Assembly (NCBI GenBank): GCA_964466285.1
Contig: CAYXNI010000001.1
Location: forward strand, 1 to 38,507
Direction: 5' to 3'
Origin: an uncultured Planctomycetota bacterium
GTDB lineage: Bacteria > Planctomycetota > PUPC01
DNA: 38,507 nucleotides
Below, in pieces: positions 20,394 to 24,600 of this stretch (position 1 is its first letter; every line of letters starts with the position of its first letter). The position numbers were made by a program, and so were the translations under genes. A model generated the notes under the pieces. That model was not told the DNA's origin. It ran no database searches and saw nothing but the letters and a program-made list of their open reading frames with translations.

Positions 20394-20459
20394 TCAATGG
20401 TTCGGCTTATCGCTCAGGTATTCGACCATCCGGCCCAGGCCGACGCGGTCCTCTTGCAT
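20394..20459 (-). pseudogene. displaced glyQS 3'-end fragment, copy 3 (MQEDRVGLGRMVEYLSDKPNH*)
   Basis: By hand alignment, 48/66 nt are identical to copy 2. It shares catccggcccaggccgacgcggtcct with copy 2. No upstream coding continuation; it abuts the hicB stop. Confidence 0.7.
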
Positions 20460-20462
20460 AGA

Positions 20463-20690
20463 TCAGCGGGACACCTGGTAGATCAGGGGCCGGTAGCTGG
20501 GCGGCGGGATCGGCTTGCCCGCGTCGCGCGCCGCCCGAAGCCAGGCTTCCTTCGCACGCTCGACCTCGGCCAAGGCCGCTTCCGGTGTCTGGCCAAAGGC
20601 CGAACAGGACTCAAGGTCAGGGATGTCGGCGATGTATCCGCCGTCTTCTTCGCTGTAGAAGATGTTGATGTGGTAGTCAGTCATGTTCAT
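20463..20690 (-). CDS. hicB: HicB-family antitoxin (UPF0150 fold)
   Basis: YHINIFYSEEDGGYIADIPDLESCSAFGQTPEAALAEVERAKEAW is the classic HicB N-domain pattern. The ATG overlaps the hicA stop (ATGA). The second ATG at 20684 has better SD spacing (GGAGGA). Confidence 0.8.
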   Translation of the reverse strand: MNMTDYHINIFYSEEDGGYIADIPDLESCSAFGQTPEAALAEVERAKEAWLRAARDAGKPIPPPSYRPLIYQVSR

Positions 20691-20938
20691 TCCTCCAACT
20701 GTAGATTATAGCGCTCAATGAGGCGAAGGAACTGACGAATCTGGTACGGCTTCGCCTCTCCATTTACATTTTGCAGGTTCACCAGTTCCGGAATGCCGGG
20801 ATGGGTGAAAATGTGATGGCTCCCGCTGACCCGTGCGCTGCGGAAGCCAAAGCCCTCGACCAGACTCACCGCGTCGTTGAAGGCGACATTCTGGAAGGAC
20901 CCATCGGCAAGCCTACGAAGCAATTTCCTCCGGTTCAC
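20687..20938 (-). CDS. hicA: HicA-family toxin (YcfA-like mRNA interferase)
   Basis: 83 aa. FGFRSARVSGSHHIFTHPG, then GEAKPYQIRQFLRLIE, matches the HicA pattern. GTG start. Canonical hicA-then-hicB order. Confidence 0.8.
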   Translation of the reverse strand: MNRRKLLRRLADGSFQNVAFNDAVSLVEGFGFRSARVSGSHHIFTHPGIPELVNLQNVNGEAKPYQIRQFLRLIERYNLQLEE

Positions 20939-20976: not shown

Positions 20977-21057
20977 CTACAATCCGAACTTGTCGGTCAG
21001 ATATTCCAGCATCCGGCCCAGGCCGACGCGGTCCTGCTGCATGGTGTCGCGGTGGCG
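20977..21057 (-). pseudogene. displaced glyQS 3'-end fragment, copy 2 (RHRDTMQQDRVGLGRMLEYLTDKFGL*)
   Basis: 81 nt, the same length as the live end at 23215-23295. By hand alignment 66/81 nt are identical, and the first 33 nt (cgccaccgcgacaccatgcagcaggaccgcgtc) are identical. It has its own stop and no upstream glyQS sequence. Confidence 0.75.
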
Positions 21058-21064
21058 TTCCTGG

Positions 21065-21451
21065 TCAGGAGTCTGTTTCGCGCGTACGGCACTTCGCCTT
21101 ATCTTCAGCGACCCGGCCCACCGCGGCGTCATCGACCCGGACGCCGCGTTTCAAGACATAGGCCGCAAAGCTGGCCGGTTCGCAATGCTCGAGCTGATCG
21201 GCGGAGAAAATGTGAAGTTCGATGTCGTCGCCGACCTCCTGCTGCACGCGCACGGCGGCTTGCGCCCGGCGATGCATGTCCCATGTCTCGGCGCCGCGCA
21301 CAAACACGCCGATATCTATGTCGCTGTAGGCATCGGCTCGACCTTCTATATGAGATCCGAAGAGGAATGCGGCAACAACGGTCGACTCGCGACGCAATGC
21401 CGCCACCGCCTCGGCCGCCTTGGCCTTTACCTCATCAAGCCGGACGGCCAT
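21065..21451 (-). CDS. MNT-type nucleotidyltransferase (minimal NTase, antitoxin-like)
   Basis: 128 aa. The FLFGSHIEGRADAYSDIDIGVF motif (GS-x9-11-DxD) is typical of MntA-like minimal nucleotidyltransferases. No intact HEPN partner is present. Confidence 0.8.
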   Translation of the reverse strand: MAVRLDEVKAKAAEAVAALRRESTVVAAFLFGSHIEGRADAYSDIDIGVFVRGAETWDMHRRAQAAVRVQQEVGDDIELHIFSADQLEHCEPASFAAYVLKRGVRVDDAAVGRVAEDKAKCRTRETDS

Positions 21452-21548
21452 TCGATGATCTCCTCTGTAGCACGGAGCGAGTGCTCCGCCTGCTTCACAT
21501 CAATCGCGAGCTTGAAAGGTGTTGATATGCTAGTTCAGGGCCCTTCGC

Positions 21549-21824
21549 CTACTCAATGATGCCCTTCGCCCGAAGGATGGCAACGTAACCATCCCTCTTG
21601 AGGGGGCACTTCACGAGGTCTCTGAAGTCATCCATGCCGAGGTGTACTTGGCTTCGGATTTTGTCGGAAACGTGCCCCGGTACATCGCCCTTTCCGTGCG
21701 AACACCTCAGCATCAGGATTTTCCGGCCTTCGTGTATGAACCACCCGATCTTGTGTCCGGTGCTCCTGCTTTCAATCCCCAGTTTCTGAAAAATCGTATC
21801 GACGTCGGATTTCTTCAGTTGCAC
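21549..21824 (-). CDS. divergent HicA-like small protein (putative toxin), ORF-C of the three-gene operon
   Basis: ORF 21549-21869 trimmed to the GTG at 21824, which overlaps the upstream stop (GTGCAACTGA). The layout LKKSDVDTIFQKLGIE..STGHKIGWF...LRCSHGKGDVPGHVSDKIRSQ resembles HicA/YcfA, but with TGH instead of GSH and an extra C-terminal segment. The assignment is tentative. Confidence 0.5.
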   Translation of the reverse strand: MQLKKSDVDTIFQKLGIESRSTGHKIGWFIHEGRKILMLRCSHGKGDVPGHVSDKIRSQVHLGMDDFRDLVKCPLKRDGYVAILRAKGIIE

Positions 21825-22402
21825 GTACCGTGAGTCTCGCAAACATTTCGTTGAAGGTGGGCAAGCCATCGGCGCGGCAGCGGCCCAAGTTCCCCGGAAG
21901 GGGTCTTCAAGTCCTGATATAGCTCGGCGACGACATCCTTGAGATCCGCTATGGCTTCTGACTCACAGTCCCCGTGGCCGTAAGCCTCCAGATCGGGGAT
22001 GTATGCGACGACAGACCCTTCGGATTCTTCAACGGTAACGTATAGCGGTTCTTTTAGAAGCAGACTGTCTGAGTTCAACGAAGAGATTGCAACTACTCTG
22101 GAAACGCGAGCCTTGCTCTCTTCGACGGCTGTCACCCGGACTTCGAGCGCAGATACTCGTTCGGACAAGGACCTGAGCGCTGTGTCTTGAGCGGAGATAA
22201 CCGCATGCAAAATGTTGCCAAGCAGTGCTTGCGCTATCCCAGCAGCCCTGACCTGCCTTTTTTGAGCTACTCTCTCAGCACCGCGCACAATTGGCCGACC
22301 GGGCGCGGCTTCTCTCCATTGCACGGCCACTGTTGCCTCTGCGGGCGCATGCTCCGAGAAATGCAAGTCCAAGGCGTGGAGGCTGTCAGGGCAGCTAGCC
22401 AT
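21815..22402 (-). CDS. coiled-coil protein with a HicB/UPF0150-like C-terminal domain (putative antitoxin), ORF-B
   Basis: ORF 21815-22441 trimmed to the ATG at 22402, which overlaps the ORF-A stop (ATGGCTAG). The C-terminus YVTVEESEGSVVAYIPDLEAYGHGDCESEAIADLKDVVAELYQDL is HicB-like. The N-terminal part is coiled-coil-like (DTALRSLSERVSALEVRVTAVEESKARV). Confidence 0.55.
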   Translation of the reverse strand: MASCPDSLHALDLHFSEHAPAEATVAVQWREAAPGRPIVRGAERVAQKRQVRAAGIAQALLGNILHAVISAQDTALRSLSERVSALEVRVTAVEESKARVSRVVAISSLNSDSLLLKEPLYVTVEESEGSVVAYIPDLEAYGHGDCESEAIADLKDVVAELYQDLKTPSGELGPLPRRWLAHLQRNVCETHGTCN

Positions 22403-23063
22403 CTTTCTTTCCCGCAGATGAAGGATTGCGCACGAATTCACGTACTACAGCTTGCGCCCGCTGAATCAACTGCTCCAACGTCTCTTTCTTCCGCGGCCAG
22501 GTCAGCTTGAGCACGGTTCGTACGTTGAGCGTAGTCTCGTTCACCGCCTCGACTATCATGTCCCTGACCGTTTCGGCTCCCCGCAAGCGGAAGCCGCTCA
22601 AGTAAACCGGCGTGTATTTTCCCGCGCTCGGCGGGGCTACTGGGGGTAGCGCGGGCGCAAGCAGTGCAAGGTTCATGTTCAACTCCATGCGCAGCGTAAT
22701 CGGAAGTTGCTCTGGAGCATCCGCAAGAACCAGTTGAAATCGACGCTGAACCTCTGTTGCCTTGACTGCTGAGTCTGCACGTTCTTCGTGCTGCTTGTCT
22801 ACGCCAATAACAGCGGTCTTCTCAGAAGGGGAGGCAACCGCAAACAGATGCAGGTGGTGCGCAAGACCGCGCCGGCTATACGTGTGACAGATTACGGGCT
22901 TTAACCGCCCGACGTGGGACTGACCCACCGGCAGGCCTGCCTCCCGAAGCGCGGATATGGCCCTATCAGATATACTAAACTCAAGCCTAAAACCTTCACA
23001 TCCGCACACGGCCAGATTTGGAAGCCGCAGAACATCTTTAGCAGGTGCCACACGCTTTGGCAT
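22395..23063 (-). CDS. hypothetical protein with no recognisable motif, ORF-A
   Basis: 222 aa from the ATG at 23063 (the ORF track's alternative is TTG at 23120). It is the first gene of the overlapping operon. GC is 50% on line 22681-22740. Confidence 0.55.
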   Translation of the reverse strand: MPKRVAPAKDVLRLPNLAVCGCEGFRLEFSISDRAISALREAGLPVGQSHVGRLKPVICHTYSRRGLAHHLHLFAVASPSEKTAVIGVDKQHEERADSAVKATEVQRRFQLVLADAPEQLPITLRMELNMNLALLAPALPPVAPPSAGKYTPVYLSGFRLRGAETVRDMIVEAVNETTLNVRTVLKLTWPRKKETLEQLIQRAQAVVREFVRNPSSAGKKDG

Positions 23064-23146
23064 TGCTAATCCGCCACAAGAGAGGCCAATCTTTGGCAGT
23101 GACCCGCAGAACCCACTCAACGGTTCCCGGTGAACTCATCAAACAG

Positions 23147-23175
23147 ATAGTACACACTCCGCGAGAGAAATGCAA
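23147..23175 (-). promoter_or_regulatory. candidate promoter TTGCAT-N17-TACTAT for the three-gene operon
   Basis: The minus strand reads TTGCAT (23175-23170), a 17-nt spacer, then TACTAT (23152-23147). It lies 40-70 nt downstream of the glyQS stop. Confidence 0.35.
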
Positions 23176-23214
23176 ACACTTAGTTCGCGGCTGTCTGGAC
23201 GTGGTCGAGACACC

Positions 23215-24600
23215 CTACGCTCGCAACTTGTCCACCAGGTACTCCACTATCCGGTCGAGGGGGACGCGGTCCTGCTGCATGGTGTCGCGGTGGCGGACGG
23301 TGGCGGCCCTGTCGTTCAGGCTGTCGAAATCGACCGTGACGCAGTACGGCGTTCCGATCTCGTCGTGGCGGCGGTAGCGCTTGCCGATGGAGCCGAGGAT
23401 GTCGTGCATGGCGGGCCAGCGCTTCCGGACGTCGTCGAACAGGGGCTTGGAGACGGCGATGAGCTCTTCCTTCTTCGAGAGCGGGAAGATGGCGGCCTTG
23501 CACGGGGCGACGGCGTTGTTCAGGCCGAGGACGACGCGCTTCTCGCCGCGGACTTCCTCCTCGCGGTAGGCGTCGCACAGGATGGCCAGGATCGCGCGGT
23601 TGAGGCCGAACGACGGCTCGACGACGTAGGGGATGTACTTTTCGCGGGTGATGGGGTCTTCGTATTCGAGCTTTTCGCCGGAGGCCTGGGAGTGCTGCTT
23701 GAGGTCGTAGTCGGTTCGTGAGGCGATGCCCTGGAGCTCGCCCCACTTGTCCCACGGGAACAGGTATTCGAGGTCGACGGTGCGGTTCGAGTAGTGCGAG
23801 AGCTCTGCCTTGTCGTGTTCGCGCCAGCGGAGTTTCGCGGGGCTGACGCCGATGGACTGGTAGAACTCCCACGACTCTTTCTGCCAGTGGCCGAAGTGTT
23901 CGAGCTCGGTGCCGGGCTTGACGAAGTACTCGATCTCCATCTGCTCGAACTCGCGCGTGCGGAAGACGAAGTTGCCGGTGGTGATTTCGTTGCGGAAGGC
24001 CTTGCCGATCTGGGCGATGCCGAAGGGCACGCGCATCCGCATCGACTGCTGGACGAGGACGAAGTTGTAGAAGATGCCCTGGGCGGTCTCGGGGCGGAGG
24101 TAGGCCTCGTTGTTGGCGTCCTCGATGGGGCCGACGTGGGTCTTGAACATGCAGTTGAACTTGCGGGCGTCGCCCAGCTCGCCGCCGCAGGTGGGGCAGA
24201 CGATGTGGTTCTCGCGGAGCAGGCGGGAGATCTCATCGAGCGAATGGCCGCTGAAGTCCTTGCCGAGCTTGTCGGCGAGCAGGTTGTCGCCGCGGAAGCG
24301 CTCGCGGCATTTCTTGCAGTCGACGAGCGGGTCGTTGAAGTTCTCGACGTGGCCGGAGGCCTGCCAGACCTTTGGGTTGACGATGATGGAGGAGTCGAGC
24401 CCGACCATGTCCTCGCGGCCGCGGACGAAGCGGTTCCACCAGATGTCCTTGACGTTGCGGGCGATCTCGACGCCGAGCGGGCCGAAGTCCCACTGATTCG
24501 CGAAGCCCTGGTAGATTTCGGAGCCGGGGAAGATGATGCCGCGGCGCTTGCAGAGGGACTTGATGTTCTTGAGGGCTTCGGACTCTTTCTCCTGGGCCAT
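23215..24600 (-). CDS. glyQS: glycine--tRNA ligase (homodimeric GlyQS type)
   Basis: ORF 23215-25047 trimmed to the in-frame ATG at 24600 (MAQEKESEALKNIKSLCKRRGIIFPGSEIYQGFANQWDFGPLGVE, the typical N-terminus). 461 aa with class II motifs. The upstream extension is low-complexity and overlaps the permease gene start region. Confidence 0.95.
   Translation of the reverse strand: MAQEKESEALKNIKSLCKRRGIIFPGSEIYQGFANQWDFGPLGVEIARNVKDIWWNRFVRGREDMVGLDSSIIVNPKVWQASGHVENFNDPLVDCKKCRERFRGDNLLADKLGKDFSGHSLDEISRLLRENHIVCPTCGGELGDARKFNCMFKTHVGPIEDANNEAYLRPETAQGIFYNFVLVQQSMRMRVPFGIAQIGKAFRNEITTGNFVFRTREFEQMEIEYFVKPGTELEHFGHWQKESWEFYQSIGVSPAKLRWREHDKAELSHYSNRTVDLEYLFPWDKWGELQGIASRTDYDLKQHSQASGEKLEYEDPITREKYIPYVVEPSFGLNRAILAILCDAYREEEVRGEKRVVLGLNNAVAPCKAAIFPLSKKEELIAVSKPLFDDVRKRWPAMHDILGSIGKRYRRHDEIGTPYCVTVDFDSLNDRAATVRHRDTMQQDRVPLDRIVEYLVDKLRA

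Follow-up and report, generated by a model that had tools for sequence, protein, structure and literature searches.

A minimal reversed-order hicBA-type gene pair, preceded by an orphan reading frame, in an uncultured Planctomycetota bacterium

Introduction

HicA and HicB proteins have been sorted into classes in a purely computational study (Gerdes 2024, mBio 15:e03293-23, PMC10865869), in which classes 2 and 5-8 show the reversed gene order hicBA. In Class 8, the HicA protein of about 95 aa combines a dsRBD with two small C-terminal helices and a DCPLSxEEY motif. The corresponding HicB is a protein of 331-356 aa with three domains, namely an N-terminal domain whose role is unexplained, a Lys-tRNA-synthetase/OB-like middle domain and a C-terminal HicB fold. 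Neither partner has a DNA-binding domain, and hicB is located upstream of hicA with the two genes closely linked or overlapping. Class 2 modules likewise have the reversed order and a small HicB-fold antitoxin (63-103 aa) that is devoid of a DNA-binding domain, and their HicAs are found among the small single-domain proteins of Classes 1-5. The canonical hicAB modules, such as those of E. coli, Burkholderia pseudomallei and Yersinia pestis, are type II toxin-antitoxin modules with the opposite gene order, in which the toxin has a dsRBD-like core and a His close to where beta1 begins, and the antitoxin has a HicB/UPF0150-type fold.

Here we describe a locus in a 38,507-nt stretch of DNA from an uncultured Planctomycetota bacterium, which is referred to below as the window. 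From the letters of this DNA it had been proposed that three overlapping genes, ORF-A, ORF-B and ORF-C, represent an undescribed tripartite system (hereafter the original prediction). Our analysis leads to a different view. With a probability of roughly 0.75, ORF-B and ORF-C constitute a hicBA-like type II toxin-antitoxin module in which the antitoxin gene precedes the toxin gene, and ORF-A and the N-terminal extension of ORF-B are lineage-specific additions to this module.

Results and Discussion

Organization of the locus

The features of the locus are as follows.

ORF-A, 22395..23063, minus strand: orphan ORF of 222 aa with an ATG start, outside the conserved B-C module
ORF-B, 21815..22402, minus strand: 195 aa counted from the ATG
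N-terminal extension of ORF-B, 22169..22402, minus strand: 78 aa, lineage-specific, with its ATG (22402-22400) overlapping the ORF-A stop
B core, 21815..22168, minus strand: HicB-fold antitoxin candidate, about 117 aa when counted from TTG 22168, conserved in all homologs
ORF-C, 21549..21824, minus strand: candidate toxin of the HicA family ('Class 8' type), 91 aa with a GTG start, predicted dsRBD-like core followed by two C-terminal helices
Promoter-like box TTGCAT-N17-TACTAT, 23147-23175, minus strand: weak, from sequence inspection

The three ORFs are present in the sequence as had been described, and so are the two stop/start overlaps, of which the one between ORF-A and ORF-B reads ATGGCTAG and the one between ORF-B and ORF-C reads GTGCAACTGA. 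The B/C overlap is beyond chance, as the same 10-nt overlap occurs in about 40 homologous loci. The lower GC content that had been noted is also real, with 55-57% at A-B-C versus 62-65% in the flanks. The same cannot be said of the proposed promoter. Although the letters of the box are there and match the sigma-70 consensus at 3/6 and 4/6 positions (7/12 in total), it was not called by a promoter scanner, which found 1 hit in the region where 1.1 were expected from shuffled sequences. Neither paralogs of ORF-A, ORF-B or ORF-C elsewhere in the window, nor tRNA genes or Rfam families in the whole window, were found.

ORF-C is related to Class 8 HicA

ORF-C carries the motifs RSTGH and KCPLKRDGY, and homologs were identified in 47 loci with identities of 43-66%. 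The alignment of the ORF-C family comprised 43 sequences, and that of the ORF-B family 121. For comparison, Class 8 HicA and HicB sequences were taken from Table S1 of PMC10865869, from the part of this table that covers Class 8 and the classes before it. An hhalign comparison of the ORF-C family with 12 Class 8 HicAs from this part gave a match of 99.4% (E=1.6e-21) over the full length of 91 columns, including the CPLSxEDY helix region, and BLASTP matches to Class 8 HicAs reached E=1.6e-11. Both groups of proteins are about 90-100 aa in length and share the motif F..(L/F)(I/V).CP(L/M)(S/T)..(D/E)Y. The added C-terminal segment that had been noticed in ORF-C is real and conserved. It would form the two extra helices with the motif CPL[S/K]xxxY by which Class 8 HicA is defined.

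The match to canonical HicA was weaker, with a probability of 79.9% and P=1.4e-5 over 61/65 columns. It was obtained with an alignment of five sequences (1WHZ, 4C26, 9SVK, 4P78 and the window's own HicA), and its score of 31.2 compares with scores of at most 10.2 for the reversed controls and at most 14.6 for 40 column shuffles. This five-sequence alignment was required, as the ORF-C family gave no signal in hhalign against the window's HicA alone. The Pfam model PF07927 (HicA_toxin) found nothing in the window's ORF-C at E<=1, it being noted that the HMMER filters drop many weak matches, and it matched none of 16 family members at E<=10. Likewise, an hmmsearch of PDB sequences with the ORF-C profile returned neither a HicA nor any other toxin-antitoxin match, and IMG/VR contained no relatives when scanned with the ORF-C family or with the window's HicA. 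Taken together, the profile comparisons to solved HicAs and to the Class 8 HicAs of the consulted part of Table S1 uphold the HicA-like nature that had been assigned to ORF-C.

An alignment of 5 sequences was the input for the AF2 model of ORF-C, whose pLDDT of 64 indicates low confidence. The model places helices at residues 5-15, 64-72 and 77-86 and strands at 24-31 and 34-42, with low-confidence residues at 47-60, and a Foldseek search of the PDB with this model returned nothing below E=1. The His of RSTGH (H24) is nearly invariant in the family. It is aligned with the conserved His of the Class 8 HicAs taken from Table S1, and is one column off the catalytic His in the alignment to canonical HicA. 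ORF-C is predicted to have a dsRBD-like alpha-beta-beta-beta-alpha core, in which H24 would be located at or next to the catalytic His position of the GSH motif. By analogy with characterised HicA proteins, such a protein would act as a ribosome-independent RNase. In a 99% identical allele of the locus (L030), the changes in ORF-C amount to 3 synonymous and 0 non-synonymous ones.

ORF-B contains a probable minimal HicB-type domain

The B core can be aligned with more than 120 database proteins and, in 46 loci, with the 113-118-aa product of the upstream gene. In hhalign, the ORF-B family matched Class 8 HicB from the same part of Table S1 with 82% (E=1.1e-5), exclusively over residues 239-336, which correspond to the C-terminal HicB fold. 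The match to the window's own HicB had P=0.004, and a marginal one to four HicB sequences had P=0.007 with a score of 20.7 versus a shuffle maximum of 18.9. A weak match to the PHROG HicB-like family (E=0.013) was also observed. The AF2 model of the 195-aa ORF-B has pLDDT values above 90 for residues 100-190, that is in the B core. A structural search of BFVD with this core gave an uncharacterised protein as the top match (E=1e-5, 94 columns, rmsd 1.9) and an annotated phage antitoxin at E=0.039. With full-length ORF-B, Foldseek matches in the PDB were limited to weak ones to dsRBDs and 3k6q (E of about 0.2-0.3, not significant), which is probably due to the floppy N-terminus. The profile of ORF-B did not reveal any toxin-antitoxin match among PDB sequences in hmmsearch; its best match there, DC-SIGNR, was rejected as a repeat artefact.

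The Pfam family PF12910 (PHD_like; 3K6Q, Swol_0700) resembles ORF-B in that it matches 93 of 121 ORF-B homologs over the beta-beta-beta-alpha core at sub-threshold level (E=0.023 for the window's ORF-B), and 3k6q is among both the Foldseek and the hmmsearch matches of ORF-B. However, the best of these Pfam matches (E=9e-4) is below the gathering threshold, and the Foldseek E-value of 0.28 is not significant.

The presence of a HicB-type module in ORF-B, as postulated in the original prediction, is supported by the match to the C-terminal domain of the Class 8 HicBs from Table S1, but the extra N-terminal part is about 78 aa rather than the suggested 120 aa, because the 115-aa homologs already have an N-terminal helix of about 35 aa. 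The core of about 115 aa would consist of this helix followed by a HicB-type beta-beta-beta-alpha fold which, by analogy with HicAB structures, would cover the active face of HicA. A DNA-binding domain was not recognisable in ORF-B.

The genes for ORF-B and ORF-C are conserved as a pair

Of 47 non-redundant loci, which come from many anaerobic phyla, 46 contain the genes for both ORF-B and ORF-C, and the ORF-B partner is almost always 113-118 aa in length. The family comprises more than 120 clusters of ORF-B, and its loci were recovered from at least 8 named bacterial lineages. The 10-nt overlap ATGCAnnTRA is kept in about 40 loci, where it also dictates a Cys codon close to the ORF-B stop, and through this overlap the two genes would be translationally coupled. 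B-C is therefore a conserved two-gene unit and, judged from the sequence comparisons described above, it most probably represents a hicBA module whose HicB is minimal, in other words a short version of the known reversed-order HicB-HicA systems. Neither the YGW(F/L) nor the LGPLP signature of this family occurs in the part of Table S1 in PMC10865869 that runs up to Class 8. Moreover, searches with Pfam, NCBIfam, PADLOC (PADLOC-DB v2) and PHROGs models gave no significant match for ORF-A, ORF-B or ORF-C, so that the check with PADLOC that had been suggested lent no support to a known defence system. In the literature, we found no experimental test of a member of the B-C family or of any Class 8 hicBA module.

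The surroundings of the pair are of relevance for its possible role. In at least seven loci, a gene for a DNA methylase (the mod gene of type III R-M systems) is located just upstream of B-C, and in one of the loci (L019) the pair is located between the mod and res genes, the latter specifying the helicase/restriction subunit. In addition, the four most divergent members (L023, L029/L060 and L056) have D or E in place of the His of RSTGH. These observations would fit with the idea that B-C is not a toxin-antitoxin module at all, but an accessory or regulatory pair, for instance an RNA-binding regulator of R-M operons with a catalytically inert ORF-C. We regard this idea as very unlikely. In most loci the genes next to B-C are unrelated, for instance those for two-component systems, glycine dehydrogenase, Fic and glycosyltransferases, as is typically seen with autonomous mobile toxin-antitoxin cassettes. 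Furthermore, about 40 of the 44 distinct ORF-C sequences retain the His, an equivalent His is present in all Class 8 HicAs from the consulted part of Table S1, and the tight coupling of two small genes is a signature of toxin-antitoxin modules. The toxin-antitoxin reading is thus preferred, in which ORF-B would be the cognate antitoxin that neutralises ORF-C, and in which the pair would be a mobile cassette that is scattered across phyla. A possible defence-linked role of this cassette is supported by its recurrent position after the R-M methylase gene.

ORF-A is an orphan

ORF-A was only found to match itself, both in a word-indexed search of 5.8 billion clusters and in an exhaustive phmmer search of 1.84 billion representatives, and the searches together covered about 15 billion proteins. 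None of the 46 other B-C loci contains ORF-A. The tripartite system of the original prediction is therefore unsupported: ORF-A is an orphan, it is missing wherever else B-C is found, and it matches no family library. Nothing shows that B-C has a need for ORF-A.

It may still be asked whether ORF-A is a gene. In 2000 dinucleotide shuffles of a stretch of 1049 nt, an open frame of this size had a P-value of about 0.01-0.03 and is thus moderately unlikely to arise by chance; at 57% GC, frames of at least 222 codons appeared in 2.7% of the shuffles. The GC contents of ORF-A at the three codon positions (0.66/0.45/0.59) and its in-frame codon log-likelihood resemble those of the bona fide B core. 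In addition, the ORF-A stop coincides exactly with the in-frame ATG of ORF-B, which is preceded by a purine-rich stretch (GGGAAAGAAAG). In view of this frame signal and the overlap with the start of ORF-B, ORF-A is probably translated, and it may be co-transcribed with ORF-B and ORF-C.

An opposing, and in our view unlikely, interpretation is that neither ORF-A nor the extension of ORF-B is functional. ORF-A would then be an open frame that arose by chance or is decaying within newly acquired DNA, or else what a frameshift has left of a longer ancestral gene, and the functional parts would be limited to ORF-C and a TTG-started ORF-B of 117 aa. This would agree with the orphan status of ORF-A at every search level and with the occurrence of frames of its length in shuffled sequences. 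It would also agree with the properties of the extension, which is absent from the homologs, has an in-frame coding score of -0.10 that is weaker than the score of the B core, and is predicted by AF2 to be disordered at residues 1-38 and to form one long helix at residues 40-96 with moderate confidence. Indeed, the homologous ORF-B proteins begin at the position of TTG 22168. However, the window's ORF-B has no ATG at this canonical start, which leaves TTG 22168 or the upstream ATG 22402 as candidates, and the TTG lacks an obvious Shine-Dalgarno sequence. Gene callers record the 195-aa form. The interpretation is further weakened by the frame-specific signal of ORF-A, which equals the signal of the B core in strength, by the exact junction of its stop with the ORF-B ATG, and by the fact that A-B-C is 100% conserved on contigs of three further metagenomes, which makes four independent assemblies with an identical sequence.

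Several of the same observations can be read in favour of a true three-component system, in which ORF-A is a functional partner (for example a sensor, DNA-binding regulator or chaperone) that acts together with the extended ORF-B. In such a system, ORF-A and the extended ORF-B would functionally substitute for the two large domains, N-terminal and middle, of Class 8 HicB. The frame of ORF-B is open for 78 extra codons exactly to the ORF-A stop, the codon usage of ORF-A matches that of the B core, and the three genes are identical in the additional metagenomes. Moreover, ORF-B and ORF-C have no DNA-binding domain, and Class 8 HicBs have about 250 extra N-terminal residues. In one of the homologous loci (L023), an unrelated small gene (DUF6941) is likewise located 5 nt upstream of an N-terminally extended ORF-B; a comparison of ORF-A with this neighbour gave noise, and a relationship between them was discarded. 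Against this stands the absence of any homolog of ORF-A, due to which co-occurrence and selection cannot be shown, along with the modest significance of its length and its absence from the other B-C loci. The 99% identical allele has no SNP in ORF-A and the other contigs are 100% identical, so that selection is unreadable there as well. In hhalign, ORF-A scored 13.9 against the N-terminal and middle domains of the Class 8 HicBs from the consulted part of Table S1, which equals the shuffled mean of 13.6, and the extension of ORF-B showed no similarity to these domains either. A three-component system is therefore distinctly unlikely, and ORF-A and the extension are considered to be lineage-specific additions to a two-gene module.

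The pair is located in a repeat-bounded islet

The A-B-C genes are part of a 2.9-kb toxin-antitoxin islet that is bounded by repeats of the glyQS 3' end and contains the following additional features.

glyQS 3' end, repeat copy 1, 23215..23295, minus strand: left islet edge, repeat family D1, C-terminus of the GlyRS ORF
Repeat copy 2, 20977..21057, minus strand: separates two cargo segments
Repeat copy 3, 20394..20474, minus strand: 65% identical, right islet edge
Orphan MntA-like nucleotidyltransferase gene, 21065..21451, minus strand: 97 nt downstream of ORF-C
Canonical hicA, 20687-20938: Pfam HicA_toxin, E=5e-9
Canonical hicB, 20463-20690: UPF0150/HicB_lk

Copy 2 is 81% identical to copy 1 with a perfect core of 33 nt, and the junction between hicB and the repeat at copy 3 is also present in another locus (L009). 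A further locus (L011) hints at a junction of copy 2 with copy 1, for which no more than 10 nt of unique flanking sequence is available. In the window, B-C is accordingly found within an islet of low GC content at the glyQS 3' end. The canonical hicA-hicB pair is indeed located about 1 kb from A-B-C, as had been pointed out, and its gene order is the reverse of that of B-C. The antitoxin-first order is nevertheless not unusual, since it is shared by classes 2 and 5-8 (PMC10865869).

The nucleotidyltransferase matched Pfam Polbeta (E=5e-9) and, below the cut-off, the NCBIfam model MntA_antitoxin (E=5e-10). No HEPN partner of this protein is present. Its gene is not conserved with B-C, being absent from L009 and the other B-C loci. 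This neighbouring protein alone matches two PADLOC candidate models, PDC-S09 and PDC-M05A.

A more speculative idea, to which we attach little credence, combines these features. The repeats of the glyQS 3' end would represent an integrase-less cassette system at one site, by which toxin-antitoxin cargo is shuffled, and ORF-A together with the extended HicB would be a lineage-specific input module. An ORF-A that was recruited or arose de novo would then control a minimal Class-8-type HicBA in trans, as the 250-residue N-terminal domains of Class 8 HicB would do in cis.

Relationship to known hicBA systems and implications

With respect to the described systems, B-C is most similar to Class 8 hicBA. 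The two have in common the upstream position of hicB with closely linked or overlapping genes (a 10-nt overlap in the case of B-C), a HicA of similar size with a predicted dsRBD core and two extra C-terminal helices, the lack of a recognisable DNA-binding domain in either partner, and an alignable HicB fold, which is C-terminal in the Class 8 HicBs taken from Table S1. They differ in that HicB has 331-356 aa in Class 8 and about 115 aa (helix plus HicB fold) in the B-C family, and the copy in the window has in addition the unrelated ORF-A and the 78-aa extension. Class 2 shares the reversed order and the small antitoxin without a DNA-binding domain, for which a HicB fold is predicted in the case of ORF-B, but the 115 aa of ORF-B are slightly above the Class 2 size range, and ORF-C has the C-terminal helices of Class 8 where Class 2 HicAs are small single-domain proteins. 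With canonical hicAB, including the pair in the window, B-C would share the type II nature, a toxin whose core resembles a dsRBD and has a His near beta1, and an antitoxin of the HicB/UPF0150 type. Compared to these modules, B-C has the opposite gene order, an antitoxin without HTH or RHH, and a toxin with extra C-terminal helices. In addition, there is no significant match of B-C to the Pfam HicA_toxin or HicB models, and the relationship is detected by profile-profile comparison only.

We thus regard B-C as a modest and uncatalogued variant of a system already described, rather than as a novel one with three parts. In this respect, the orphan ORF-A serves as a caution that a stop/start overlap alone is no proof of membership of a system. 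Our analysis defines a widespread family that has no Pfam, NCBIfam or PADLOC model, and this family provides a connection between Class 8 hicBA, which is poorly understood, and a minimal form with two domains. The link suggests that pairing with a HicA of this type may not require the large N-terminal domains found in Class 8 HicB. With sizes of 115 and 90 aa, the B-C proteins represent a small and tractable pair for probing the role of the extra HicA helices.

Sequence organisation of the A-B-C region

The original prediction described three minus-strand ORFs with overlapping stop and start signals, a reduced GC content and a nearby canonical hicA-hicB pair, and on this basis proposed an undescribed tripartite system. 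The observation itself was largely correct, as the ORFs, their overlaps and the canonical pair are all present. The features of the region are as follows:

20394-20474, glyQS-3' repeat copy 3, 65% identical
20463-20938, canonical hicA/hicB pair (Pfam HicA_toxin, E=5e-9; UPF0150/HicB_lk)
20977-21057, glyQS-3' repeat copy 2, 81% identical, sharing a 33-nt perfect core with copy 1
21065-21451, minus strand, MntA-like nucleotidyltransferase (Pfam Polbeta, E=5e-9; PADLOC PDC-S09, E=1e-7)
21549-21824, minus strand, ORF-C (C), 91 aa, GTG start
21815-22402, minus strand, ORF-B (B), 195 aa counted from ATG
22395-23063, minus strand, ORF-A (A), 222 aa, ATG start
23215-23295, glyQS-3' repeat copy 1, 100%

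The start of B shares ATGGCTAG with the stop of A, and the start of C shares GTGCAACTGA with the stop of B. The GC content of the A-B-C region is 55-57%, compared to 62-65% in both flanks, and its GC3 is 0.58-0.70 as opposed to 0.94 for glyQS, the GC at codon positions being sharply unlike that of host genes. The promoter suggested for the three ORFs fared less well: the TTGCAT-N17-TACTAT box does occur in the sequence, but it agrees with the sigma-70 consensus at 7 of 12 positions, was not called in a promoter scan of the region, and the promoter-like matches in this region were as frequent as expected from shuffled sequences. A hairpin resembling a terminator, GCGAACTAAGTGTTTGC with a T-rich tail after it, is located on the minus strand at 23172-23188, 27 nt past the glyQS stop, where it overlaps the proposed -35 box.

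B and C as a conserved pair

ORF-C of the window has homologs of 43-66% identity. A total of 62 loci (47 non-redundant) was gathered, which include 17 GTDB genomes belonging to the Desulfobacterota, Planctomycetia, Bacteroidota, Clostridia, Aminicenantes, Caldatribacteriota, Thermodesulfovibrionales and Dehalococcoidia. Relatives of C were not found in IMG/VR. A B-like gene, nearly always of 113-118 aa, lies directly 5' of C in 46 of the 47 non-redundant loci, whereas ORF-A was not found at any of the 46 non-redundant B-C loci besides the window. Judged from this distribution, the conserved unit is a pair of genes, B-C, and not a set of three.

The B-type proteins form more than 120 clusters, and the homologs align only to the final ~115 residues of ORF-B; its first 78 aa are therefore lineage-specific. 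At the canonical B start position the window has no ATG, just a TTG at 22168 that is a candidate start. In about 40 homologous loci, the B stop and C start overlap by the identical 10 nt (ATG-CAn-nTRA). A near-invariant Cys lies two residues before the end of B; its codon, both in the window (21815-21824) and in all B-C loci, is the TGC within the A-TGC-A formed by the C start and the following Gln codon. The conservation of this Cys may thus reflect the overlap rather than a function in the protein.

Relationship of C and B to HicA and HicB

Pfam HicA_toxin did not match any of 16 C members, and hmmsearch against the PDB recovered no HicA. When an alignment of 43 C sequences was compared profile to profile with five genuine HicAs (1WHZ, 4C26, 9SVK, 4P78 and the HicA of the window), the probability was 80% (P=1.4e-5, 61 of 65 columns), with a score of 31.2 against at most 14.6 for reversed and 40 column-shuffled controls. 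HicA contexts have been sorted into 14 classes, the gene order being reversed (hicBA) in classes 2 and 5-8 (Gerdes 2024, PMC10865869). Class 8 HicA is described there as a protein of about 95 aa in which a dsRBD is followed by two small helices at the C-terminus, and 12 Class 8 HicA and 8 Class 8 HicB sequences were taken from part of Table S1 of that study. The C family matched Class 8 HicA over its full length (99.4%, E=1.6e-21), including the F..L(I/V).CPLS.EDY region, with H24, the His of the RSTGH motif, opposite the conserved His. BLASTP with C of the window against these HicAs gave an E-value of 1.6e-11. In the alignment to canonical HicA, the H24 column is one off the catalytic His, and four divergent members carry D or E instead of this conserved His. 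An AF2 model of C from a 5-sequence alignment (pLDDT 64) has the elements H, E, E, a low-confidence stretch, H and H, which is compatible with, though no proof of, the fold described for Class 8.

Like the HicA-like assignment of C, the HicB-like assignment of B was supported: the B family matched Class 8 HicB, but only at residues 239-336, its C-terminal HicB-fold domain (82%, E=1.1e-5). Weak independent backing for a HicB-type fold comes from below-threshold Pfam PHD_like matches in 93 of 121 B members, a PHROG HicB-like match (E=0.013), hhalign with the HicB of the window (P=0.004), and BFVD, in which the top structural match has an E-value of 1e-5 (rmsd 1.9, 94 columns) and a protein annotated as a phage antitoxin has one of 0.039. 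In the AF2 model of ORF-B, residues 1-38 are disordered, residues 40-96 form a single long helix and the conserved C-terminal core has a pLDDT above 90.

Class 8 HicA and HicB both lack a DNA-binding domain, and Class 8 HicB carries ~250 additional N-terminal residues (PMC10865869), whereas B corresponds to the C-terminal domain only. By its sequence, B-C thus belongs with the published Class 8 hicBA modules as a variant with a short HicB. This variant has no entry in Pfam, NCBIfam or PADLOC, and was not found in the compared part of Table S1 of PMC10865869.

ORF-A

A word-indexed search of 5.8 billion clusters matched ORF-A to itself alone, an exhaustive phmmer search of 1.84 billion representatives yielded only a 93-aa fragment of ORF-A itself, and Pfam, NCBIfam, PADLOC and PHROGs gave no match. 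Identical copies are present on short contigs of three further JGI metagenomes. Another contig, L030, is a 99.4% allele with 8 SNPs, all within 21444-21859: three in C, all synonymous, four in the B tail (two synonymous, two non-synonymous), one downstream of C, and none in the covered portion of ORF-A. When the 1049-nt stretch is dinucleotide-shuffled, 1-3% of the shuffles contain an open frame of this length, and the codon score is 0.03 in-frame, as for the B core, against -0.33 and -0.37 out-of-frame. ORF-A is therefore probably a real, translated orphan.

Because of the extra N-terminal residues of Class 8 HicB, we considered whether ORF-A plus the first 78 aa of B might be a split or frameshifted counterpart of that region. 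In hhalign, ORF-A scored 13.9 with the Class 8 HicB alignment, where shuffles averaged 13.6; at the low sensitivity of a single sequence, this gave the idea no support. The sole apparent tie of ORF-A to B-C is its 8-nt overlap with B, and no functional link was found. A tripartite system is thus not supported, as these searches found neither homologs of ORF-A nor ORF-A itself at other B-C loci.

Neighbourhoods of B-C

The only recurrent neighbour of B-C is an N6_N4 DNA methylase of ~690 aa, whose gene precedes the pair by 50-100 nt on the same strand at 7 loci (L019, L043, L044, L061 and three more); the other neighbourhoods are unrelated. At L019 (3488-9242), a 954-aa ResIII/SWI2-SNF2 protein starts 104 nt downstream, and with the methylase upstream and this helicase subunit downstream, B-C lies inside a type III R-M operon. 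Five B homologs of 118-134 aa (P0041, P0052, P0084, P0102, P0105) bear the JGI label 'type I restriction-modification system DNA methylase subunit', which is probably annotation spill-over from adjoining R-M genes.

At the Planctomycetia locus L023 (4872-6014), a 152-aa B is preceded, at a distance of 5 nt, by a DUF6941 gene (138 aa), and Asp replaces the conserved His of C. The DUF6941 gene is unrelated to ORF-A and represents a second, separate three-gene arrangement; with this one extra case, lineage-specific genes upstream of B may recur. Distant C relatives (33-39% identity) with Glu for His occur at L056 and the Dehalococcoidia-type loci L029, L060 and L062, where the upstream gene encodes 97 aa and retains LGPLP alone of the B motifs. 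These relatives may represent a degenerate or repurposed branch.

The glyQS 3' end as a possible insertion site

The glyQS 3' end (~25 codons plus stop) is present in three direct-orientation copies that bracket cargo segments of 2157 nt, with A-B-C and the orphan MntA-like nucleotidyltransferase, and of 502 nt, with a class-1-type hicAB. This layout resembles serial insertion at the glyQS 3' end; no integrase was found among the flanking genes scanned, which are housekeeping genes. The nucleotidyltransferase has no HEPN/HepT partner and ends 8 nt short of repeat copy 2, which suggests a possible loss of the toxin gene at the edge of the insertion. The JGI 3300028621 contig L011 opens (1-50) with 10 nt from the left flank of copy 2 (tgaccaggaa), followed by the shared core, the right flank of copy 1 and ORF-A. 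Such a junction would be expected if the 2.2-kb segment existed in circular or tandem form, and may just as well be an artefact of the de Bruijn graph at the exact repeat.

A related island from another sample, L009 (1-972), has the C homolog closest to that of the window and consists of a partial B, C, 6 nt, a hicB with 78% DNA identity to that of the window and a glyQS-3'-like repeat; nucleotidyltransferase, repeat copy 2 and hicA are absent. As hicB directly follows B-C, C sits where the window has hicA. Since L009 combines B-C, a related hicB and the same glyQS-like repeat, the glyQS 3' site appears to be a hotspot whose toxin-antitoxin cargo varies.

Proposed function of B-C

No experimental study of Class 8 HicBA was found in the literature. 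Toxicity of C, its neutralisation by B and any role in defence are inferred. Going by homology, the most likely identity of B-C is a type II hicBA module, in which C would act as an RNase toxin of the HicA type and B as a minimal HicB antitoxin masking it, their translation being coupled via the conserved 10-nt overlap.
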